DNA of 8,312 nt from a virus (taxonomy: Duplodnaviria; Heunggongvirae; Uroviricota; Caudoviricetes): IMG/VR virus record IMGVR_UViG_3300014770_000037, positions 1-8,312 of that record. One strand, written 5' to 3'. The notes under the pieces were generated by a model. It saw nothing but the letters and a program-made list of their open reading frames with translations, was not told where the DNA came from and made no database searches. Below are positions 1 through 8,312 of this stretch, piece after piece (the first letter of the stretch is position 1; each line of letters starts with the position of its first letter). Made by a program: the position numbers and the translations under genes.

Positions 1-695
1 ATTGCACAAGGTTGGAACGATGAACAACTGATCGCTAACGCTGCTACAGGTGCTGCCGCTGGTGTAGGCGCTGCTACAGGTGCTGCCGCTGGTGTTACGC
101 CGATCGGACGTGCACCTTCAGGCATTGCAGGAGCCGCACCGAACACAGAGGCAGGAGCCGGACCGGAAATGATTTCTTCACCTGCATAAAGCAATTGCGC
201 CATTTCCATGTTGATATACACACCAGCCTGATTACCTGTACGACCGTTTGCAACAGATGATCCGCTGATACGGTAGTAATAACCTTTTTTCGCCAGATTT
301 TTATCAATAACTGGCTGGTACGCTGCGTTATAAACCGGACACGCGTCAATAGCCACGTTGCGTGAGAAACCAATTACCCAGTGACCAGCATAACCAGTTT
401 TACTCGCATGTTTCGGGTCGTCACCGTTAATAATTTTCCATGCGAAAGTAGGTTGTTGTGGTTCGCCATTCACATAGTGTGAATTAGCCGCTCGCATAAT
501 CGCCTGGAATACCGCACCCAGTTCACCTTGTTCTTCCCACCAGTTCGCCGCTGTTTTAGGAAACGCCAGACCAACCCACCAGTTGTGTTTTTCAGGTGCT
601 AACGGTTTGTTTTCGTGGTCATGGGTGTTGATATCGAAAAAAGAACCGCCAACCAGACGACCAACCGGAGTTACAAAAGATTCTTTCTGTGCCAT
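1..695 (-). CDS. putative phage ssDNA-binding protein (DUF2815-like), partial; C-terminal Pro/Ala-rich repeat linker; 3' end beyond window start
   Basis: Minus-strand ATG at 695-693 (cat on + strand) preceded by AAGAAGG (rc of 700-706), 15 nt after the upstream nuclease stop. The frame stays open for 231 codons to the window edge with no stop. Translation begins MAQKESFVTPVGRLVGGSFFDINTHDHENKPLAPEKHNWWVGLAFPK and ends in a linker TPAAAPVAAPTPAAAPVAA. Family call rests on the N-terminal pattern and on the position immediately downstream of a DUF2800 nuclease, the canonical DUF2800-DUF2815 pairing. Not in the ORF track because no stop lies inside the window. Confidence 0.6.
   Translation of the reverse strand, partial: MAQKESFVTPVGRLVGGSFFDINTHDHENKPLAPEKHNWWVGLAFPKTAANWWEEQGELGAVFQAIMRAANSHYVNGEPQQPTFAWKIINGDDPKHASKTGYAGHWVIGFSRNVAIDACPVYNAAYQPVIDKNLAKKGYYYRISGSSVANGRTGNQAGVYINMEMAQLLYAGEEIISGPAPASVFGAAPAMPEGARPIGVTPAAAPVAAPTPAAAPVAALAISCSSFQPCA
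39..98. repeat. 30-bp in-frame tandem duplication (2 units, 27/30 identical) encoding a Pro/Ala-rich linker
   Basis: Units 39-68 (cgctgctacaggtgctgccgctggtgtagg) and 69-98 (cgctgctacaggtgctgccgctggtgttac) read directly from the sequence. The period of 30 nt is 10 codons, so the reading frame is kept. On the minus strand it encodes roughly TPAAAPVAAP twice. Confidence 0.9.
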
Positions 696-710
696 GTTAT
701 TAACCTTCTT

Positions 711-1856
711 TTAAAGTGGACGTGCGCCAGTCGGCATCGTCACGGGTTTATTAAAAACAGATTCTGCCAGTGTGCTGTGACCTTTACGCGGGTCACTGTC
801 AGGTACTAAAACTGGCTGACCTTCTGGTTTTGTCGTACACATGTCAACAAGTGCCGGAGGCAGTGATTTTTCCAGTGTTGACAATGGTTTTAATTTACGT
901 TCGTACAATGTTTCAGGGTTTACACCAAACATGGGTGCAGCACCGATCAGTTTTCCTTCGTCCGTAAGCTGACGTCGGGTTTGTTTTGTTGCAAGTTTAA
1001 AACCCGGTAAAACTTTACCCATACGAACAAAATGTAACCCCTGAGTATGTAACGCTGTTTTTGCTTCAGAAGAACGCGTATACAGTTCTTCAAGAAGTGC
1101 CAGACGACGCGCTACTTCTTCTGGCGTAAGTGATGGTGGTGCATCAAGAACAGTAGCCAATTCTAAAACCCTCTCATACATCGCCGGACACATACCACGC
1201 GCCGGACAGTAATGACAATGACTACCAACATTTAAAGGTGCGTCTGGTTTATGTGCTTCGTTAAACCCGTGTTTAAATCGTTCAGCCCATTCCATCAATG
1301 TTGCCAGGTTAAACTCCCATCGTCTTACAGGTCCGAGTGGGTGATAAGCCCGTGGCTGAACAATTGTGAACACAACGCGCTTAACAGTGTCGATGCAACG
1401 TTGGTCCAGTGCATAATAGACCCCCTGTGAGTTATCAACTGCGTCAACTGCAACATGACCGTATTTATAATCCCATACATAAAGCGTATCAGTATTAAAG
1501 TCATACCAGCGATAATCACAGGTTCCGTACTGACCGGGTAACAACCAGTCAATGTGAATGCGAACTTCTGAAAACAGCGGATCAAGTTTCGCACCAACTG
1601 AAAGAACATCTGCTATAAAGTCATCCGCGTAAATGTGCATGTCTTCAGTAACCTGAACACCGTTAGGAGCAATACACGGCATTAATGGCTGTTTACCTTT
1701 AATCTTCTGTTCTAACACCCAGTGCCCGGCTGTACCTTCTTCAGCACTGGGTGATGATGGTTCTACATAATCAATCCGCTGTGACAGTTGAACGCTACCC
1801 GGACAAGCTAACCAACGTTTTGATCCACTGGCACTAAAGGTAGCGTGACTTGTCAT
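711..1856 (-). CDS. Cas4-like PD-(D/E)xK nuclease, DUF2800 family, with predicted 4-Cys Fe-S cluster
   Basis: 381-aa ORF. N-terminus MTSHATFSASGSKRWLACPGS matches the DUF2800 hallmark start (HA..SAS...RW..CPGS). PD-(D/E)xK-like core around VWDYKYGH. One N-terminal Cys (LACPGS) plus C-terminal C-x2-C-x5-C (GSHCHYCPARGMCPA, about nt 1187-1217) is the Cas4/AddB-type cysteine arrangement. Its ATG shares one nucleotide with the upstream gene's stop (TGATG at 1858-1854). Confidence 0.85.
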   Translation of the reverse strand: MTSHATFSASGSKRWLACPGSVQLSQRIDYVEPSSPSAEEGTAGHWVLEQKIKGKQPLMPCIAPNGVQVTEDMHIYADDFIADVLSVGAKLDPLFSEVRIHIDWLLPGQYGTCDYRWYDFNTDTLYVWDYKYGHVAVDAVDNSQGVYYALDQRCIDTVKRVVFTIVQPRAYHPLGPVRRWEFNLATLMEWAERFKHGFNEAHKPDAPLNVGSHCHYCPARGMCPAMYERVLELATVLDAPPSLTPEEVARRLALLEELYTRSSEAKTALHTQGLHFVRMGKVLPGFKLATKQTRRQLTDEGKLIGAAPMFGVNPETLYERKLKPLSTLEKSLPPALVDMCTTKPEGQPVLVPDSDPRKGHSTLAESVFNKPVTMPTGARPL

Positions 1857-2626
1857 CAGAATGCCCCACCCATTTGTTTAACAGATTCAGCCTGACCAAC
1901 AATGTTTTCAGCATCAGCCGGGGCCGCGTTAATGCGTTCAATCAGTTCGATGATAGATTTCAGTTTTACTGGGTCGTCAATCTGCATCACGTTCTGAGTT
2001 TCATACAGTCCCATGATTCGCTGACTTAATGGCGCGGCACGGTCACCCGTAATTTGTCCAAACATCTGCATTAGTGCTGACTGAAGAACCTGGGTATTAT
2101 AAACTTTAGCTGGATCCGTGGTTACAGGTTGCTCGACAGGCGCGACTGGTGCAGCCGGTGCTGCTGGTACAACTGGAGCTACCGGAGCGGCAGGAACCGC
2201 TGGAGCAGGATCAACAGGTGCTACATAACCCGGTGCAAGTTCTGCAGGTCCGGTATAACGCCCTGCTTCAACTGCTTCAGCAATAAGTTCACGTTTAACA
2301 CCGTCAACAAACGCTTCATCCAGTTTTTTCTTTTGACGCCACAGACCATCACCTTTGTTCAGGGATTTACTGTCAGTGTGGATACGTGGATCGTGGCGCA
2401 AACCCCATTTGTCGAACTCTTCAGTGCTGGTTTCGTTATCGTCAATATCTTCAGTTGTTGCTGATACAACAGGCAGTGATTCAGCAACGACTGTCACGGT
2501 TTCTTTAGTGATACCATCATCCTGAGCAGTCATGAGTGGTGCAGCACCAGTCGCAATAGCATTTGCCAGATTGTTGATCGCAGTTTCCAGACCCGGAGCA
2601 GTTACAAGTAATTTAACTTCGAACAT
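1856..2626 (-). CDS. hypothetical protein, two domains joined by a Pro/Ala-rich linker; function unknown
   Basis: 256-aa ORF, ATG at 2626-2624 with SD AAGAGGA about 8 nt upstream (rc of about 2634-2640). First gene of the leftward operon, directly downstream of a predicted promoter. Acidic segment TTEDIDDNETSTEEFDKWGLRHD, then linker PAPAVPAAPVAPVVPAAPAAPVAPV (residues about 126-166, nt 2129-2251), then a C-terminal domain of about 90 aa. No motif I can assign to a family. Confidence 0.75.
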   Translation of the reverse strand: MFEVKLLVTAPGLETAINNLANAIATGAAPLMTAQDDGITKETVTVVAESLPVVSATTEDIDDNETSTEEFDKWGLRHDPRIHTDSKSLNKGDGLWRQKKKLDEAFVDGVKRELIAEAVEAGRYTGPAELAPGYVAPVDPAPAVPAAPVAPVVPAAPAAPVAPVEQPVTTDPAKVYNTQVLQSALMQMFGQITGDRAAPLSQRIMGLYETQNVMQIDDPVKLKSIIELIERINAAPADAENIVGQAESVKQMGGAF

Positions 2627-2658
2627 TACGTTTTCCTCTTGTTGTTTGGTTATCGCTA

Positions 2659-2697
2659 ACTTTAAAAGGTGTTGTGTAATCTGTCAAGAATTATTTT
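2659..2697 (-). promoter_or_regulatory. putative sigma70-type promoter P1 for the leftward operon, with A/T-rich UP-like element
   Basis: On the minus strand: AAAATAATTC-TTGACA (-35, rc of 2682-2687), 17-nt spacer, TAAAGT (-10, rc of 2659-2664). Predicted start lies about 25 nt upstream of the ATG at 2626. The 15-mer GTCAAGAATTATTTT (2683-2697) recurs at 2747-2761 and, reverse-complemented, at 8054-8068. Confidence 0.45.
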
Positions 2698-2721
2698 TAC
2701 ACTCGCCTTTCGTTGATGCAG

Positions 2722-2761
2722 ATGTTAGAGGAATAAGTTGCAATACGTCAAGAACTATTTT
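2722..2761 (-). promoter_or_regulatory. possible second (distal) leftward promoter P2 carrying a near-identical UP/-35 element
   Basis: GTCAAGAACTATTTT at 2747-2761 is 14/15 identical to 2683-2697. On the minus strand it reads AAAATAGTTC-TTGACG (-35, rc of 2746-2751), 18-nt spacer, TAACAT (rc of 2722-2727). The -10 is weaker than in P1. Confidence 0.3.
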
Positions 2762-2766
2762 AAACT
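2738..2766 (+). promoter_or_regulatory. candidate rightward promoter for the helicase operon, overlapping P2
   Basis: TTGCAA (2738-2743), 17-nt spacer, TAAACT (2761-2766), about 37 nt upstream of the helicase GTG at 2803. Hexamer match only; it overlaps the oppositely oriented P2 element. Confidence 0.3.
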
Positions 2767-2802
2767 TTTTTCACGATTCGATATTAACTGAAGGAAAGAT
2801 AC

Positions 2803-4470
2803 GTGAGTCAACAACCACTTCGTCACTATCAACAAGATGCCGTTAACAACGTGCGCCAGGCATGGTCGAACGGTGCTGATGACGTGATTCTTGTACTTCC
2901 CACGGGTGCAGGAAAGACCCGAGCGCTTGCAGAACTGGTAAAATCCGACGGTGTAAAAGTCATCCAGGCACACCGTAAAGAACTGGTTAGTCAAATCGCA
3001 ATGGCTGTTGCTCGCCAGGGATTACCACACAGATTTATAGCGCAAAAAGATACTGTTAAGTTTGCAACTAATCAGCAGATGAAAACGCTTGGTTACAGTA
3101 CCTATTCCCCCGGCGCTGACATCGTTATTACCAGTTCACAAACGTTAAGAACAAAACAGTACGAACGATGGTACAACGACGTGTCTCTTGTATTCAGCGA
3201 TGAAGCGCATCACCTGGTACGTGGCACACAGTGGGGAGACTGCCGGGAAAAATTCCCTAACGCTAAAGGTCTGGGTGTTACAGCTACACCGATCCGTGCT
3301 GACGGTAAAGGCTTGGGTCGTCATGCGTCAGGTTACGCAGATCAGATGATCATCGGTCCATCAATGCGTGAGTTAATCAGCCAACAACACCTGGCTGATT
3401 ATCGCCTGATCATGGCTGAAACAGACCTGGAATTAACTGCAGAAATGATTTCCCATACTACGGGTGATTACAAACCCTCTGCGTTAAAAAAAGCGATGGA
3501 AGATTCAAACATCGTTGGTGATACCGTCAGTACGTGGAAAACGTACGCAGACGGTTTACTCACTGTTGTGTTTACGTGTGACGTAGATTCTGCTGAAGCA
3601 CTCGCAAAAGAATTTCGCGATGCTGGCATTCCTGCAGAGGCGATCAGCTCACGAAACAGCAATCAGGAACGAGCGGATATTCTGGAACGTTTTGAACGAC
3701 GTAAAACACTCGTGCTATGTAACAACGATTTATTCGGTGAAGGGTACGATTGCCCGGCGATGGAATGCGCTGTAATGGACCGTCCAACAGAATCTTACTC
3801 TTTGTTTGTACAACAGATGGGTCGACCATTGCGTTTCAAACCCGGTAAAAAAGCACTGATTATTGATAAAGTCGGTAATGTTCGTCGATTTCTGGCCCGT
3901 GGTTTTCCACTTCCCGATCAGCACTACAACTGGTCTTTAGATGACCGTGATCGTCGTTCATCTAACAGCAGTGGGAACAGTAATACAACATGTACAAACA
4001 AGGGTGATCCTGATAATGGTATTCCACCGTGTCTGAAGCCTTATCCGTCTGGTCTTCCGTGCTGCCCGTATTGTGGTCATATTCCTGAAAAAGCCGAACG
4101 CTCAGGCCCGGATCGTGTAGAAGGTAATTTACGTGAACTGACACCTGAAGAATTGGAAGAATTACGCCGGGCAGTGGTGATAATCGACCGTGACCCTGTT
4201 GCAGTAAAAGAACAAATGTTAAACGCTGGTGCACCCCCTATTGCAGCTTACAGTGCAATGAAAAACATTCAGGCAATGAACGATGCACAGCGTAAATTAC
4301 GCAGTATGATCACCACATGGGCGGGTATTCAGCGTGATAAAGGTATACCCGTTGATGACGCTTACAAGATGTTTTACAGGGTGTTTGGTGTTGATGTACT
4401 TAGCGCTCAGGGGTTACGTACTCGTGAAGCTAATGAACTCGCCGCAAGGGTTGCAAGTTCATTAATCTGA
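2803..4470 (+). CDS. superfamily 2 DEAH-type DNA helicase with C-terminal Cys-rich (zinc-ribbon-like) insert
   Basis: 555-aa ORF with GTG start at 2803 and SD AAGGAAAG at 2792-2799. N-terminal LRHYQQDAV (Q-motif-like), Walker A LPTGAGKT (nt 2902-2919), motif II FSDEAHH (DEAH at 3199-3210), motif III TATP, motif VI QQMGRPLR (about 3811-3834). Ser/Asn-rich linker followed by C-x12-C-x9-CC-x2-C-x-H (nt 3991-4080). Confidence 0.9.
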   Translation: MSQQPLRHYQQDAVNNVRQAWSNGADDVILVLPTGAGKTRALAELVKSDGVKVIQAHRKELVSQIAMAVARQGLPHRFIAQKDTVKFATNQQMKTLGYSTYSPGADIVITSSQTLRTKQYERWYNDVSLVFSDEAHHLVRGTQWGDCREKFPNAKGLGVTATPIRADGKGLGRHASGYADQMIIGPSMRELISQQHLADYRLIMAETDLELTAEMISHTTGDYKPSALKKAMEDSNIVGDTVSTWKTYADGLLTVVFTCDVDSAEALAKEFRDAGIPAEAISSRNSNQERADILERFERRKTLVLCNNDLFGEGYDCPAMECAVMDRPTESYSLFVQQMGRPLRFKPGKKALIIDKVGNVRRFLARGFPLPDQHYNWSLDDRDRRSSNSSGNSNTTCTNKGDPDNGIPPCLKPYPSGLPCCPYCGHIPEKAERSGPDRVEGNLRELTPEELEELRRAVVIIDRDPVAVKEQMLNAGAPPIAAYSAMKNIQAMNDAQRKLRSMITTWAGIQRDKGIPVDDAYKMFYRVFGVDVLSAQGLRTREANELAARVASSLI

Positions 4471-4511
4471 TGGTAATCTGCATAGAAATATTTTAAACGT
4501 AAGGAACTGTA

Positions 4512-5018
4512 ATGCGTGATTTGATGGTTGACATTGAGACGTGTGGTACTAAACCAGGTTGTGCAGTGCTGTCAATTGGCGCTGTTTACTTTGATCGTCA
4601 GGGTAACATTGGTGAAACGTTTTACGCATCAATGGGTTTTAATGCGCTCGCTTACGGTCACACAGACCCTGACACTATGAAGTGGTGGTCGCAGCAGTCA
4701 GAACAAGCACAAAAAGATGCTTTTGGTGGTACTGCCGATCCTGTTCAGGTTGCTAAAGATTTTGCCAAATTCATCTGGCACGATGCTAAACCGTGGGGCA
4801 ATGGTTCCACATTCGATATCACTATTCTGGAAGCATGGTTTAATGCGATTGGTGTTCGTTGCCCGTGGAAGTTCTGGAACGTCCGTGATGTTCGTACCGC
4901 TGTTGATTTGCTGGGTATTAACCCGAAAGAATTTACCCGTGACGGTACTTACCACAATGCGTTAGACGACTGTTTACACCAGATTAAATATCTTACTAGT
5001 GGGACTAAAACATTATGA
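4512..5018 (+). CDS. DnaQ-like DEDDh 3'-5' exonuclease
   Basis: 168-aa ORF, SD AGGA at 4501-4504, 7 nt before the ATG. Exo I-like MVDIETCG (D at 4530-4532, E at 4536-4538), Exo II-like GNGSTFDI, Exo III-like YHNALDD (H-x4-D). Stop overlaps the next gene's start (ATGA at 5015-5018). Confidence 0.85.
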   Translation: MRDLMVDIETCGTKPGCAVLSIGAVYFDRQGNIGETFYASMGFNALAYGHTDPDTMKWWSQQSEQAQKDAFGGTADPVQVAKDFAKFIWHDAKPWGNGSTFDITILEAWFNAIGVRCPWKFWNVRDVRTAVDLLGINPKEFTRDGTYHNALDDCLHQIKYLTSGTKTL

Positions 5019-5506
5019 CAACGCTTGAACAATGGGCGATTCGTCACGGTATTAGTCAGATGGCGTTGTACGAGTTATACGCGCTTTATCAGCCTGATGG
5101 AACACCACACGAAGACGGTGTAAGTGAAAGCGCCACCAGTAAAGAGTGTGAACTGATTGCGGCACGCGCAGGGCAACGTATCTGGCGTAATAACTCAGGT
5201 GCTCTGAAAAACGAAAAAGGAATGATGGTTCGTTATGGTCTTGGTAACACCAGTGCGAAAATCAACGCTGTTATGAAGTCAAGCGACTACATCGGCATTA
5301 AAACCAAAATCGTTACACCGGATATGATCGGTTCGAAAGTGGGTGTCTTTATTGCTGCCGAAATGAAACGCCCTGACTGGCACATGACCCCGAGTGACAG
5401 ACGTGCACAAGCACAGGCCACTTTCGGTGCGATTGTTGAAAACGCAGGTGGTGAATTTCGTTTCATCACTCATCCTTCACAATTTGAAAAATGGATTAAA
5501 CAATGA
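5015..5506 (+). CDS. VRR-NUC domain nuclease (PD-(D/E)xK superfamily)
   Basis: 163-aa ORF. VRR-NUC-like pattern RIWRNNSGAL ... VRYGLG ... SSDYIGI ... GVFIAAEMKRP, giving the D ... E-x-K catalytic arrangement. Translationally coupled on both sides (ATGA overlaps at 5015-5018 and 5503-5506). Confidence 0.85.
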   Translation: MTTLEQWAIRHGISQMALYELYALYQPDGTPHEDGVSESATSKECELIAARAGQRIWRNNSGALKNEKGMMVRYGLGNTSAKINAVMKSSDYIGIKTKIVTPDMIGSKVGVFIAAEMKRPDWHMTPSDRRAQAQATFGAIVENAGGEFRFITHPSQFEKWIKQ

Positions 5507-5676
5507 ATACTGAACGCATTAAACGTCTGCAAAAACTGATTGATAACCACGGTATTGAGGCTGTTGCTAAACGTCTGAACGTTACTGAAATTCATGTTAA
5601 ACGTAATCTGCTTACCGGGCGATCTGCTATCAACCTGGTCAAACTGATGGCTGCTGAACGTCAGTTCGGAGCGTAA
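5503..5676 (+). CDS. small 57-aa protein, putative helix-turn-helix DNA-binding protein (not in ORF track, below 60 aa)
   Basis: ATG at 5503 overlaps the VRR-NUC stop; TAA at 5674-5676 lies 3 nt before the primase ATG at 5680, so it exactly fills the gap between two confident genes with no stop in frame. Translation MNTERIKRLQKLIDNHGIEAVAKRLNVTEIHVKRNLLTGRSAINLVKLMAAERQFGA. The segment GIEAVAKRLNVTEIHVKRNL has a helix-turn-helix-like pattern. Only a weak SD (TGGA, 7 nt upstream). Confidence 0.5.
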   Translation: MNTERIKRLQKLIDNHGIEAVAKRLNVTEIHVKRNLLTGRSAINLVKLMAAERQFGA

Positions 5677-5679
5677 ATT

Positions 5680-8034
5680 ATGAAAGGGTTACTGAACCGT
5701 AAACAGTGGGTCATGTGGCGACTTGAGACAGTTGCCGATCGTCCAAAACCAACGAAAGTACCATACAGCCCGGTACACGGTTATAAAGCCAGTACCACTA
5801 ACCCTAACGACTGGTCTGACTATCACACCGCGTTAGGTATGGCGCAAATGTACGGCATGTCTGGTGTTGGTTTTGTATTCACAGAAAATGACCCTTATTT
5901 CTTTATTGATGTCGATAACTGTCTGGTAGATCAGGCAACAGCCACATGGTCACCACTGGCGCATGAATTCGTAAACCGTTTTCCAAATGCTTACACTGAA
6001 GTCAGCCAGTCAGGAACAGGTTTGCATATCATCTGTGCTTATACCAGCATACCGGAAGGTTTTAACAGTCTGAACGACCAGAAAACCGGGCTGGAAATGT
6101 ACTGGCGTGATCGTTTCGTCGCGATGACGCTCACGGGTAATGGCGATGTTGATATTGATTATACCCAGGGCATTCATGATTCTATTGCCCGGTATGGTCG
6201 TATCCGTTCAGACCGTTCCGCACGCTGGACAACAGCACCCTGTGATGACTGGTCAGGTCCGGCAGACGATGATGAACTGATTAAAATGGCGTTAAATTCG
6301 TCCAGTGCTGCTTCAGTATTTGGTAATAAAGCGTCATTTGCAGATCTGTGGAATGCAAACGTTGAACGCCTGTCTGTGTCATACCCCAGCGACCAGGGAA
6401 AAGACTACAATGCATCTGCCGCTGATGCTGCCCTGTGCTCACACCTTGCGTTCTGGACAGGGAAAGATTGCGAACGTATTGAACGTTTGTTTAACCGTTC
6501 TGGGCTGGTTCGTGGTAAATGGACAGATCGTCAGGATTACCGTGAAAACACGATTTTGGGCGCTGTGGAACGTTGTGATACTGTGTATCGTAGTCAACCG
6601 ACAATGACACCAGAACTGATGAAAGCAGTCACACCAGCGCCTACCGTCGTTCCTAATGGTGGAACACCTGCGTACATGAGTGTGAAACCCGGTGAAGGTG
6701 CATATGGTTCAAACCATACGGTTAACGCATCCACGTTCGTTAATAACTATTATCCAAACAACACATTGATTTTTGTCCAGCAACAGCCGTACCGGTTCAA
6801 CGGTCGCGTGTGGGAACGTGTGAGTGAAGATGAACTGAAACATCAGATATCTATGGCAATGCTCGCCAGCGAACCAAAAGCTGACGTAATTAACGGTACG
6901 TACAAGGTTTTGTCGTATTTATTCACACGCGCTGATCGTGAGCTTGGAACATGGCCCGGCGTTGATGTATCACACTATATTGTTTGTCAGAACGGGATAC
7001 TGGATGTACACACGGGTAAATGTGATGCACATAACCCTGATTTCTTTACGACCAGTATTTTACCGTATAGCTACGATCCGTTTGCCCGTGCGCCAGCATT
7101 TGAACAGTTTCTTAATACAACTCTGGAAGGTGATCAGGAACGTATTGCACTGTTGCAGGAATGGTTGGGTTACATGCTTGTCAACTCGTACGACTATCAG
7201 AAAGCGATGTTGTTGATTGGTGCGCCACGTTCCGGTAAAGGTACGATTGGTCGCATCATTCAGGCACTGGTAGGTGATGAAGCGTATGCAGGGATCACAC
7301 TGGAGGGTTTAGCCAGTGATGCGGTACTTGAAACTGTGCTGGATAAATCTGTGCTGTTTATTGGTGATGCTCACAGTGTGTCCGGGCCTGACCGCAACCG
7401 AATTCTGGACCGTTTCAAATCTATTACAGGTTGTGATGCGATTCCGGTTAATCGTAAGTATAAAGGTGCATGGAACGGTCGTTTACCTGGACGTATGACA
7501 CTGGCTGCTAACAACATACCTGCATTTGCTGATGATTCCGGTGCAATGGCTAACCGTTTGCTGATCCTGCCGTTCAACATTTCGTTCCTGGGTCGTGAAG
7601 ATACCACTCTGGAAGCACGACTGATGAAAGAACTACCGGGGATCTGTAACTGGGCGATTGAAGGTTTACAACGGTTACGTGCAAACGGACGGTTTACTGA
7701 ACCAAAAGCAAGTCTGGAAGAACGTCAGGAAATTATGGATCAACAATCACCACTTAGAAGTTTTATCAGAGATTGTTGCGAATTGGTATCTGATGGTGAG
7801 GTGCACACTGAAGAACTCTATGGTCGTTATCGTCTCTGGAAAACACAGGAAGGTGGTCCAGCAATGACTAAAACTGCATTTAGTCGGGCGTTTAAATCCA
7901 CCCTTCGTGGTAAAGTGAAAAAAGACGTTGTTAATATAAATAACGTTCGACTAAACGGTTTCAGGGGTATTCGTCTTCTCCCTTTTCAGTCAACAGCTAA
8001 TGTAGTGCCTTTTCCACCTGCGAGTAATAGTTAG
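5680..8034 (+). CDS. bifunctional DNA primase-polymerase (prim-pol/AEP-type N-terminus, PriCT-like middle) fused to a C-terminal P-loop NTPase/helicase domain (P4/D5-type or DUF5906-like)
   Basis: 784-aa ORF, SD GGAG at 5667-5670. N-terminal FFIDVDN (D-x-D at 5908-5916) and SGTGLHIIC are typical of prim-pol domains. The middle region DDDELIKMALNSSSAASVFGNKASFADLWNAN resembles primase C-terminal (PriCT) domains. C-terminal Walker A LLIGAPRSGKGT (nt 7219-7245) and Walker B-like VLFIGDAH. Confidence 0.9.
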   Translation: MKGLLNRKQWVMWRLETVADRPKPTKVPYSPVHGYKASTTNPNDWSDYHTALGMAQMYGMSGVGFVFTENDPYFFIDVDNCLVDQATATWSPLAHEFVNRFPNAYTEVSQSGTGLHIICAYTSIPEGFNSLNDQKTGLEMYWRDRFVAMTLTGNGDVDIDYTQGIHDSIARYGRIRSDRSARWTTAPCDDWSGPADDDELIKMALNSSSAASVFGNKASFADLWNANVERLSVSYPSDQGKDYNASAADAALCSHLAFWTGKDCERIERLFNRSGLVRGKWTDRQDYRENTILGAVERCDTVYRSQPTMTPELMKAVTPAPTVVPNGGTPAYMSVKPGEGAYGSNHTVNASTFVNNYYPNNTLIFVQQQPYRFNGRVWERVSEDELKHQISMAMLASEPKADVINGTYKVLSYLFTRADRELGTWPGVDVSHYIVCQNGILDVHTGKCDAHNPDFFTTSILPYSYDPFARAPAFEQFLNTTLEGDQERIALLQEWLGYMLVNSYDYQKAMLLIGAPRSGKGTIGRIIQALVGDEAYAGITLEGLASDAVLETVLDKSVLFIGDAHSVSGPDRNRILDRFKSITGCDAIPVNRKYKGAWNGRLPGRMTLAANNIPAFADDSGAMANRLLILPFNISFLGREDTTLEARLMKELPGICNWAIEGLQRLRANGRFTEPKASLEERQEIMDQQSPLRSFIRDCCELVSDGEVHTEELYGRYRLWKTQEGGPAMTKTAFSRAFKSTLRGKVKKDVVNINNVRLNGFRGIRLLPFQSTANVVPFPPASNS

Positions 8035-8053
8035 TCATTGCACAAGGATGGGT

Positions 8054-8093
8054 AAAATAATTCTTGACGAATTACAGATGTGTGCGCTATAGT
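8054..8093 (+). promoter_or_regulatory. strong sigma70-type promoter with UP-like A-tract; begins a new rightward transcription unit
   Basis: AAAATAATTC-TTGACG (-35 at 8064-8069), 18-nt spacer, TATAGT (-10 at 8088-8093). Followed by SD AAGGAG (8111-8116) and ATG at 8125. The upstream 15 nt (8054-8068) is the exact reverse complement of 2683-2697. Confidence 0.5.
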
Positions 8094-8124
8094 CTGTACA
8101 TCAAGTGAACAAGGAGTGATTGTT

Positions 8125-8312
8125 ATGAAAAACATATTTGACCGTTTAATTACTGTTATTGTATTTCTTGTATCCGTAACACTCGCGTCTTGTATTGTCG
8201 GACTAATGACCCGTGGTAATCATGCGGAAACACCGTGGTGGTTTCTGGCGGGTCTTGGATTATTAGCGGCTGCGTGCATAACGGTCTTCTTTTTTGATTA
8301 CAGCACCGAATT
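8125..8312 (+). CDS. small membrane protein (two predicted transmembrane helices), partial; 3' end beyond window
   Basis: ATG at 8125 with SD AAGGAG 8 nt upstream; open for 62 codons to the window end. Translation MKNIFDRLITVIVFLVSVTLASCIVGLMTRGNHAETPWWFLAGLGLLAAACITVFFFDYSTE shows two hydrophobic stretches separated by a short polar loop. Not in the ORF track because no stop lies in the window. Confidence 0.6.
   Translation, partial: MKNIFDRLITVIVFLVSVTLASCIVGLMTRGNHAETPWWFLAGLGLLAAACITVFFFDYSTE

Follow-up and report, generated by a model that had tools for sequence, protein, structure and literature searches.

The locus studied here raises a simple question: what does the protein do that is encoded directly in front of a phage nuclease and its SSB, the protein that binds single-stranded DNA? 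The window, i.e., the whole stretch of DNA that was analysed, comprises 8,312 nucleotides (positions 1 to 8,312 of the Caudoviricetes record IMGVR_UViG_3300014770_000037 in IMG/VR), and it encodes at 1856..2626 of its minus strand a protein of 256 amino acids (aa), for which we use the name X. A previous reading made from the letters alone, without database searches (the sequence-only reading below), had described X as an uncharacterised two-domain protein and had proposed that it was either a replisome or recombination accessory factor or an acidic protein mimicking DNA. We analysed the gene and its selection, the predicted architecture of the protein, the family to which it belongs, its genomic neighbourhood and the other proteins in which its central domain occurs. 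The explanation that fits these data best, to which we give an even chance, is that X would serve the phage's own machinery of replication and recombination as a multivalent adaptor without catalytic activity.

Gene X and its expression signals

The genes and signals at the left of the window are the following (ORF, open reading frame; HMM, hidden Markov model; dN/dS, ratio of nonsynonymous to synonymous substitution rates).

1856..2626, minus strand: gene X (256 aa, ATG start), defined by the ORF list, orthology, a PHROG match and dN/dS.
2635..2687, minus strand: promoter-like site and ribosome-binding site upstream of X (-35 at 2687-2682, -10 at 2664-2659, GAGG at 2638-2635), as consensus matches only.
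711..1856, minus strand: DUF2800 PD-(D/E)XK Cas4-like nuclease, 381 aa (Pfam PF10926, E 3.8e-58; PHROG 69 'exonuclease').
1..695, minus strand: 5' part of a DUF2815 (T7 gp2.5-like) SSB/annealing protein, running off the left end of the window (annotation of Bas82 and 9NA, HMM from DUF2815 homologues).

The window shares 96-97% identity over 99% of its length with Escherichia phage KarinMuster_Bas82 (Bas82 in this text) and the Salmonella phages Solent, Sergei and Sasha (genus Sashavirus); with Salmonella phage 9NA and with a group of phages of Klebsiella, the identity falls to about 78%. The orthologues of X are Bas82_0069 (98% identity), Solent_075 and 9NA gp68 (67% identity), and the identity of its homologues as a whole ranges between about 20% and 98%. 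X aligns end to end with PHROG 27827 (E 1.4e-164, residues 1-256 on profile positions 1-253 of 253). The dN/dS of the gene (Nei-Gojobori) is 0.08 against Solent and 0.15 against 9NA. It varies along the protein: against 9NA, it is 0.04 in the N-terminal 26 residues, 0.08 in residues 68-135 and 0.28 in the acidic linker. The N-terminus and the core described below are the tightest regions (0.04-0.08), and the first linker (aa 27-67) is the least constrained one (0.28-0.35). X is therefore a real gene under purifying selection and not a chance ORF.

Where X meets the nuclease gene, the minus strand has the sequence CTGATGA, in which the TGA of X (1858-1856) and the ATG of the nuclease (1856-1854) share one base. 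A Shine-Dalgarno GAGG (2638-2635) is located 8 nt 5' of the start of X, and a sigma-70-like site, TTGACA-17-TAAAGT (2687..2659), matches the consensus at 10 of 12 positions. This promoter-like site lies inside the 176-bp gap that separates X from the divergently transcribed helicase gene, and divergent promoters are annotated at the equivalent place in Klebsiella phage KpV52. Given the promoter-like site and the GAGG, X is plausibly the first gene of a leftward operon. The sequence-only reading had claimed as much, together with coupling to the nuclease, and both the signals and the TGA/ATG overlap agree with it; co-translation with the SSB-like protein, which it also proposed, may occur as well.

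Architecture of X

We modelled X with AlphaFold2 on an alignment of 139 diverse homologues. The model has a mean predicted local distance difference test score (pLDDT) of 79 and a predicted template modelling score (pTM) of 0.40, the low value of the latter being explained by a build like beads on a string. X is predicted to consist of three ordered modules that are joined by two flexible linkers, one acidic and the other rich in Pro and Ala.

2549..2626, minus strand: N-terminal module (aa 1-26), with an alternating-hydrophobic strand (FEVKLLV) and an amphipathic helix (aa 13-26; helical in AlphaFold2, pLDDT about 74).
2426..2548, minus strand: disordered linker (aa 27-67), acidic at its C-terminal end (pLDDT 50-59).
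2222..2425, minus strand: core mini-domain (aa 68-135), with D72-x2-G75-x3-D79-x-R81-I82-H83...W96, the basic patch RQKKK and a helix at aa 104-120 (pLDDT about 95).
2096..2221, minus strand: Pro/Ala-rich extended linker (aa 136-177; pLDDT 52-76).
1859..2095, minus strand: C-terminal four-helix domain (aa 178-256), of a sequence type that varies between lineages (aa 178-251 in the model, pLDDT 89-95).

The linkers are conserved in kind over the 139 representatives of the family, the second one having a median length of 48 aa and a content of 51% Pro plus Ala. An h-x-h-x-h pattern is present within the first 14 residues of 113 of these representatives, and we propose that the N-terminal module is a docking or oligomerisation unit. 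In the model, the core of X is irregular up to residue 103 and then forms the helix of aa 104-120; the cores of the family are mildly basic. The acidic stretch (aa 56-79) has about 20 residues with pLDDT 50-59, and the charge of the 25 residues preceding the motif is -8 in X; the median over the family is -4, and every second member has -3 or a weaker charge. The net charge of the entire protein is -15, and the family median is -8.

This picture replaces the two-domain build of the sequence-only reading, which had missed both the core and the N-terminal module. What it had called an acidic N-terminal region, TTEDIDDNETSTEEFDKWGLRHD, reaches from the last part of the first linker into the first part of the core, and the most conserved element of the protein (aa 72-96) falls inside it. 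The acidic stretch itself, the folded C-terminal domain (aa 178-251 in the model) and the Pro/Ala linker that it had described are all recovered, albeit with a linker length nearer 45 residues than the 40 it had given. It had also noted that this linker resembles that of the adjacent SSB-like protein, and the likeness is found in the composition and not in the DNA (67% identity over 27 nt).

An invariant motif unites a family of phage proteins

An exhaustive search with HMMER among 1.84 billion representatives revealed at least 430 clusters (at 50% identity) with E up to 1e-3. The best 150 of these 430 matches include proteins of about 155-340 aa; most of the matches align via residues 45-200, and 141 of the 150 representatives contain D-x2-G-x3-D-x-R-[IV]-H. 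The typical sequence of the family is LDxxGLPWDxRIHxxxKxxNxDGxWRxRRGVDxxxxxxVxAEL. Residues D72, G75, D79, R81 and W96 are invariant across the 139 aligned representatives, and I82, H83 and E113 are nearly so; X and its close relatives read GLRHD where most of the family has GLPWD (R-H for P-W at positions 77-78). We define the family by the invariant motif followed by the basic patch and the helix, a length of 180-340 aa and a gene located directly 5' of DUF2800. X has D72, G75, D79, R81, I82, H83 and W96, and its gene overlaps the start of DUF2800.

The family corresponds to PHROGs 27827, 11133 and 29341, all three of 'unknown function' and the last two matching via the core. They are catalogued as separate groups, which are linked here by one motif and one genomic position. 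The named phages with an X gene all have Proteobacteria as hosts, among them Klebsiella, Vibrio, Rhizobium, Escherichia, Edwardsiella, Proteus, Agrobacterium, Salmonella, Stenotrophomonas, Pectobacterium and Burkholderia. In a scan of one genome per species, covering 185,579 bacterial and archaeal species, there were only 5 X loci, of which at least one is in a prophage and several resemble phage contigs, vs hundreds of X loci in viral contigs. The family is thus essentially confined to phages.

X precedes the DUF2800 nuclease in nearly all loci

To quantify the association of X with its neighbours, we used samples that were picked by the motif alone, ignoring the neighbouring genes: 80 viral contigs obtained with a peptide pattern, 120 viral contigs obtained with a DNA pattern (27 nt, degenerate, for GLPWD[AE]RIH) and 5 genomic loci. 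The neighbours were detected with HMMs that we built by iteration, starting from proteins of the window. The viral contigs are metagenomic, and gap sizes depend on the choice of the longest ORF.

In the first sample together with the reference phages, X is directly followed by DUF2800 on the same strand in 82 of 87 loci. These 87 loci have a DUF2800 nuclease (84), a DUF2815 SSB (81), a polymerase downstream (51) and a divergent helicase (82); in the first sample, DUF2815 is found about 1.1 kb further on, and the helicase, endonuclease and primase genes are upstream and divergent. The second sample has the same arrangement in 95 of the 98 loci with enough downstream DNA. When the samples are pooled and redundancy is removed, DUF2800 is located directly 3' of X for 156 of 159 unique X genes and for 128 of 130 clusters (50% identity), with a median gap of 0 nt and a gap of at most 10 nt in 73%. 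Of the three cases that deviate, one is a prophage fusion protein, the second has no more than 640 nt of downstream DNA, and in the third the ORF caller over-extended the nuclease ORF. The sequence-only reading had left it to homologous genomes to decide whether X keeps company with DUF2800 and DUF2815 genes, and these counts answer in the affirmative. Since the partner nucleases are just 20-30% identical to that of the window, the pairing of X with the nuclease is ancient. The arrangement is also annotated in unrelated cultured phages (Klebsiella myovirus KpV52, Proteus phage RS10pmA and Stenotrophomonas phage B2), with an HNH endonuclease gene inserted between X and the nuclease in KpV52.

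The leftward gene order in Bas82, Solent and 9NA is X, DUF2800 nuclease, DUF2815 SSB and DNA polymerase. The rightward order is SF2 helicase, Rv2179c-like 3'-5' exonuclease, endonuclease, a small ORF and a primase-polymerase fused to a D5-like helicase. Steczkiewicz and colleagues have described a three-gene phage module, duf2800-gp2.5-polA (PMC8093625), and ORF6 of Enc34 is a DUF2815 SSB (PMC5686142). The genes of the window are co-oriented and adjacent as in this module (from the annotations of Bas82, Solent and 9NA, with Pfam and PHROG): the nuclease, the gp2.5-like SSB and the polymerase are shared and lie on one strand, and X is an additional leading gene. It occurs in the subset of modules from phages of Proteobacteria and is absent from the examples that we examined in Staphylococcus, Chi-like and APSE-1 phages.

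The core occurs in other replication and recombination proteins

The polymerases of the modules form a single divergent family. Pfam gives them no match above the curated threshold and, below it, one weak match to a PolB-type exonuclease domain; in the one long module polymerase that was checked, a DxxSLYP motif like that of family B can be seen. The motif x-D-x-R-I-H is found in the C-terminal region of 18 of the 65 unique module polymerases, 10 of which have the full G-x3-D-x-R-I-H. Usually, G-x-W-K-R-K...D-x2-Y-x2-V-x2-E-I stands before it, a pattern similar to the second half of the core of X, and the core HMM matches these segments with independent E values (i-E) of 5e-7 to 1e-5. The pattern of the insertion near the C-terminus of the polymerase is G-x-WKRK...V-x2-EI...D-x2-G-x-PWD-x-RIHT-x-NKSK. 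The polymerase of the window's clade (618 aa) is without such a core-like insertion. Examples of the module polymerases are given by locus:

L249, 6106-8250, minus strand: module polymerase.
L254, 1436-3580, minus strand: module polymerase.
L034, 1420-3555, minus strand: module polymerase.
L020, 9971-12136, plus strand: module polymerase.

The core also occurs in the C-terminal part of a protein of 468 aa that is encoded by a prophage of Marichromatium gracile and by a viral contig. Its first 270 residues correspond to PHROG 3657 and are followed by an acidic linker, the core and a helical tail, and its gene lies between a RecE-like DUF3799 exonuclease and RdgC. PHROG 3657 is a large family (3066 matches) of about 275 residues that has no Pfam model, and a profile search of PDB sequences with its domain gave no match. 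In prophages of Pseudomonas aeruginosa, the PHROG 3657 gene is located between the DUF3799 exonuclease and an SSB, with overlapping stops and starts. A position between exonuclease and SSB is the classic one for a single-strand annealing protein. Assigned by gene order only, PHROG 3657 is probably an undescribed family of such proteins. Its members carry variable C-terminal appendages, i.e., the core of X, acidic tails ending in ...DF or a beta-rich domain.

L184, 4981-6387, plus strand (also L076): PHROG 3657 protein.
L188, 5001-5831, plus strand: PHROG 3657 protein.

A complete X is fused in frame behind a Rv2179c-like 3'-5' exonuclease at two loci, and this exonuclease is 33% identical (E about 1e-17) to the stand-alone exonuclease of the window (4512-5018). 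Two loci encode X proteins with two tandem cores, and in one further ORF, which is continuous, an N-terminus like that of a DNA methyltransferase (DPPY motif) precedes a complete X; this could be a true fusion or an assembly error. The core is thus, unexpectedly, a portable module placed on enzymes of DNA replication and recombination.

L022, 5341-6597, plus strand: exonuclease fused to X.
L310, 7135-8421, minus strand: exonuclease fused to X.
L046, 5401-7020; L085, 5629-7014; L211, 4801-6306, all plus strand: tandem-core and methyltransferase-joined X ORFs.

Known families and database labels

Searches among known families gave little. No Pfam match was obtained at E up to 0.1 for X or for ten distant members of its family, and there was no match of the family in NCBIfam. 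Against PDB sequences, a single-sequence search with X and a profile search with the core remained at chance level (best E 0.86 and 0.18, respectively). With the full-length X profile, the sole PDB matches were the Ala/Pro-rich swinging-arm linkers of E2 acyltransferases (E 8e-4 to 4e-3), which align with the linker of X. This likeness to the E2 linkers of 2-oxo-acid dehydrogenases is compositional only and fits a flexible tether; the folded parts are not homologous. A search of the model against the PDB with Foldseek had a best E of 0.25 (the DAXX four-helix bundle), with matches on the C-terminal domain and none on the core, and against BFVD it retrieved members of the X family only. Homology of X to the PDB entries of the three-helix bundles of Red-beta (its C-terminal domain) and Orf was not found either. 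The profile and fold searches therefore produced no hit to a characterised family, and those in Pfam, PDB, NCBIfam and among folds none to a catalytic one, in line with the sequence-only reading, which had recognised no catalytic motif.

The database records of the family are labelled as hypothetical protein, TonB receptor, helicase, RecT-like annealing protein, recombinase, ribonuclease E/G or topoisomerase II domain protein. The functional labels (TonB receptor, helicase, RecT and the others) are unsupported, and several of them stem from the low-complexity linker. The mislabelled records are MH586730, MZ726797, OQ955832, PQ783785, ON146294, MZ326867 and MG575420, and UniProt A0A076G5E2. The label of TonB or TonB-dependent receptor, given to X in Solent, derives only from the Pro-rich linker: X has no Pfam match, no transmembrane segment and no barrel, and its AlphaFold2 model is helical and disordered. 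In phages AVIO78A, PJ16 and PDP46, the protein is called a helicase, and it has neither a Walker A motif nor a match to a helicase family of Pfam; the true helicase is the neighbouring gene (2803-4470). The label of RecT/Red-beta annealing protein is found in Stenotrophomonas phages B2 and Silvanus, Pseudoalteromonas phage B8b and Proteus phage RS10pmA, and none of 11 proteins has a Pfam match that would justify it. The protein of phage B2 matches only the three PHROGs of unknown function named above and no NCBIfam model. This label probably spread from the proteins in which the core is appended to the putative annealing protein.

A proposed multivalent adaptor and its rivals

How would a non-catalytic adaptor work? 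X would be made first and in step with the DUF2800 end-resection nuclease, and the TGATG overlap suggests a matched synthesis of the two proteins, which is typical of subunits that assemble together. The core would be a docking domain that brings the protein to which it is attached onto a common platform, either SSB-coated or resected DNA or a shared protein of the replisome. Its presence in polymerases, in the putative annealing protein and in the exonuclease fusions is consistent with a domain that gathers DNA enzymes at one site. Lineage-specific partners would be held by the N- and C-terminal modules; the nuclease is the foremost candidate, and after it come the Rv2179c-like exonuclease, the SSB or the polymerase. 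The succession of small ordered modules on long flexible linkers fits a multivalent tether. Because the prophage fusion occurs without DUF2800, DUF2815 and the phage polymerase, DNA or a conserved host protein such as SSB is more likely to be the partner of the core than the DUF2800 nuclease. We have less confidence in any particular partner than in the adaptor role as a whole. More tentatively, and with clearly less confidence than we have in the adaptor role as such, one may extend this to a broader scheme. In it, the DUF2800-DUF2815-polymerase machine of lytic Proteobacteria phages would have X as a fourth universal subunit, which would tether the nucleases, the SSB and the polymerase to one platform. 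The core of X would be a portable docking domain, not recognised before, that organises a hub of phage replication and recombination and was captured by polymerases, the putative annealing protein and exonucleases, and PHROG 3657 would be a new annealing family.

Several points weigh against an adaptor. DUF2800 is present in at least 1125 phage records vs 145 found by one distant X query, and X is missing from many DUF2800-DUF2815-polymerase modules, so that it must be dispensable to the module in general. The prophage core fusion adjoins a nuclease of a different family (DUF3799), and the core is thus not specific for DUF2800 itself. The D, D, R, H and W residues gathered in a stretch of 25 residues might just as well be the sign of a metal site or of a small catalytic centre. 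Finally, synteny and fusion reveal a shared process and not a mechanism: what the data show is the gene, its architecture, motif, selection, synteny and fusions, and what we infer is the absence of catalysis, the adaptor role, the pairing of modules with partners and the partner of the core.

The alternatives were weighed against the same data. X might be directed at the host, as an inhibitor that protects ends in the manner of lambda Gam, counters RecBCD or other defences, or mimics DNA by its acidity. We consider this unlikely, even if X is the first and early-expressed gene of a recombination operon, as gam is beside bet and exo in lambda, its overall charge is negative (-15, family median -8) and an invariant core would suit a highly conserved host target. 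A masking companion of the nuclease is conceivable, given that a DUF2800 nuclease of another phage is reported to trigger a retron defence (bioRxiv 10.64898/2026.07.14.737667). However, anti-defence genes are usually patchy and mobile, whereas the position of X is kept in 128 of 130 divergent clusters; searches of Pfam, PHROGs and the PDB gave no likeness to a known family of inhibitors, and the core within polymerases, the putative annealing protein and the exonuclease fusions is better explained by a role in the machinery. The known DNA mimics (Ocr, ArdA, Gam) have a folded, extended acidic surface that imitates the DNA backbone and is kept among homologues, and the acidic segment of X, which is short, disordered at the pLDDT given above and weakly conserved (family median charge -4), is unlike them. 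The DNA-mimic half of the sequence-only proposal has thus lost ground, while its other half, an accessory factor of the replisome or of recombination, is strengthened by the fusions of X or its core to an exonuclease, the putative annealing protein and polymerases.

That X binds DNA as a replication initiator, i.e., an origin-recognition protein, or as a regulator at the divergent promoter region, is a still less probable explanation. The gene does abut the 176-bp divergent intergenic region between two replication operons, a basic patch follows W96 (WRQKKK), and multidomain proteins with flexible linkers, e.g., lambda O, serve as initiators; one may add the N-terminal strand-helix unit, which may be reminiscent of half a ribbon-helix-helix fold. 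Yet X is strongly acidic overall, no helix-turn-helix, ribbon-helix-helix or other DNA-binding family was matched by sequence or fold, and a motif that is invariant, whereas origins must differ among phages, is as hard to square with sequence-specific origin binding as are the cores in polymerases and on the putative annealing protein. The least probable of the three alternatives is that D72, D79 and H83 are ligands in the core, which would be a miniature centre of a new kind, catalytic or metal-binding, and would make X an enzyme, e.g., a cofactor subunit of a nuclease or a DNA-end phosphoesterase. It draws on the invariance of D72, D79 and R81 and near invariance of H83 over at least 139 divergent sequences, on a core whose fold is predicted confidently though it lacks regular secondary structure, a pattern typical of metal sites, and on the location beside nucleases (156 of 159 loci). 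But the ordered core amounts to just some 35 residues and one helix, no likeness to hydrolases in fold or motif was found, and the change from GLPWD to GLRHD in X indicates tolerance right beside the putative ligands.

The adaptor that we favour has parallels in well-studied systems. Red-beta of lambda has a C-terminal domain in the form of a tethered helical bundle, and this domain binds both lambda Exo and the C-terminal peptide of the host SSB, thereby coupling resection to annealing (PMC6393309). X resembles Red-beta and lambda Orf in that it has a tethered helical bundle and an exonuclease as a neighbour, and its core ends a putative annealing protein. The replisome of T7 is organised by an insertion in its polymerase, by a peptide tethered to its SSB and by flexible linkers: gp2.5 uses its acidic C-terminal tail to bind basic loops that lie in the thioredoxin-binding insertion of the gp5 polymerase. 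Similarly, some module polymerases carry the core of X, with its WKRK patch, as an insertion, and the SSBs of modules without X have acidic tails. Unlike T7 gp2.5, the SSBs of modules with X are without acidic tails and have instead Pro/Ala/Gln-rich linkers together with a G-x-TYE...GW[TS][DE] motif or a ...DRIPF tip.

Sequences of X have already been deposited many times as hypothetical proteins, and the three-gene module has been published (PMC8093625). We found no description in the literature of the fourth gene, its motif or the portability of the core, and a full-text search for the core motif retrieved no paper. Among the cassettes with which phages replicate and recombine, the DUF2800-DUF2815-polymerase module is one of the commonest, as the number of records with DUF2800 illustrates. 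If the adaptor exists, a coupled fourth component would change the way in which the module should be reconstituted in vitro and used for recombineering, and four or five point mutations would give a handle on the coupling of resection, annealing and synthesis. The misleading labels (TonB receptor, helicase, RecT), which spread by annotation transfer, would be corrected, and the portable core may help to recognise replisome-associated proteins among unannotated phage genes.

The SSB and other neighbouring genes

The SSBs of modules with and without X differ. The DUF2815 proteins of X-containing modules have a median length of 320 aa and a Pro/Ala/Gln-rich linker; most of them end in G-x-TYE-x2-I-x2-GW[TS][DE]-x2-L-x3-G-x-M, and those of one clade in ...DRIP[FYH]. 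In contrast, those of modules without X (Chi-like and Staphylococcus phages) have 185-214 aa and classic acidic tails. The SSB of Bas82 (full gene at L001 5656-6687, minus strand) has about ten tandem PTPAAAPVAA repeats (39-95 in the window), and at its C-terminus a small motif, GATYEQFISQGWNDEQLIANGYMV, which includes GWND, takes the place of the acidic tail that is usual in gp2.5-like proteins. These differences suggest that modules with X rely on other tethered contacts, an effect that is inseparable from shared ancestry. The same applies to the covariation of the C-terminal type of X with the C-terminal motif of the SSB, which we discarded for this reason. A C-terminal tip shared by X and the SSB (GGAF vs GNGY) holds only in the 9NA-like clade and was discarded as well.

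The nucleases of X-containing modules (L004-L086) end in [AS]-x-[RK]-[RK]-[VI]-F-G after a variable region, and the version in the window is ESVFNKP (711-760, minus strand). This C-terminal peptide may be a docking peptide.

In Chi-like phages, Staphylococcus Triavirus and APSE-1, the small proteins encoded 5' of DUF2800 are built in a similar way to X, with a helix at the N-terminus, then a disordered linker and a helical domain at the C-terminus, and lack its motif. Those of Chi-like phages end in an acidic tail like that of their own SSB (...EEDEEDL vs ...DDDDDDL). Homology of these proteins to the C-terminal domain of X is unproven (hhalign P 0.01-0.05, weak PHROG cross-matches with E 1e-4 to 2e-2). 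Their positions are as follows.

L087, 2155-2562, plus strand: small protein 5' of DUF2800.
L174-L182, about 2400-2950, plus strand: small proteins 5' of DUF2800.
L088, 2618-2980, plus strand: small protein 5' of DUF2800.
L089, 565-1488, plus strand: small protein 5' of DUF2800.

Two more genes of the window lie in the rightward operon. An ORF of 57 aa (5503-5676, plus strand), with no family match in Pfam or PHROG, overlaps the gene that precedes it. The latter (5015-5506, plus strand) encodes a protein of 163 aa that has no Pfam match, matches PHROG 93 'endonuclease' (E 3.9e-22) and has homologues that are conserved across the X-containing loci.

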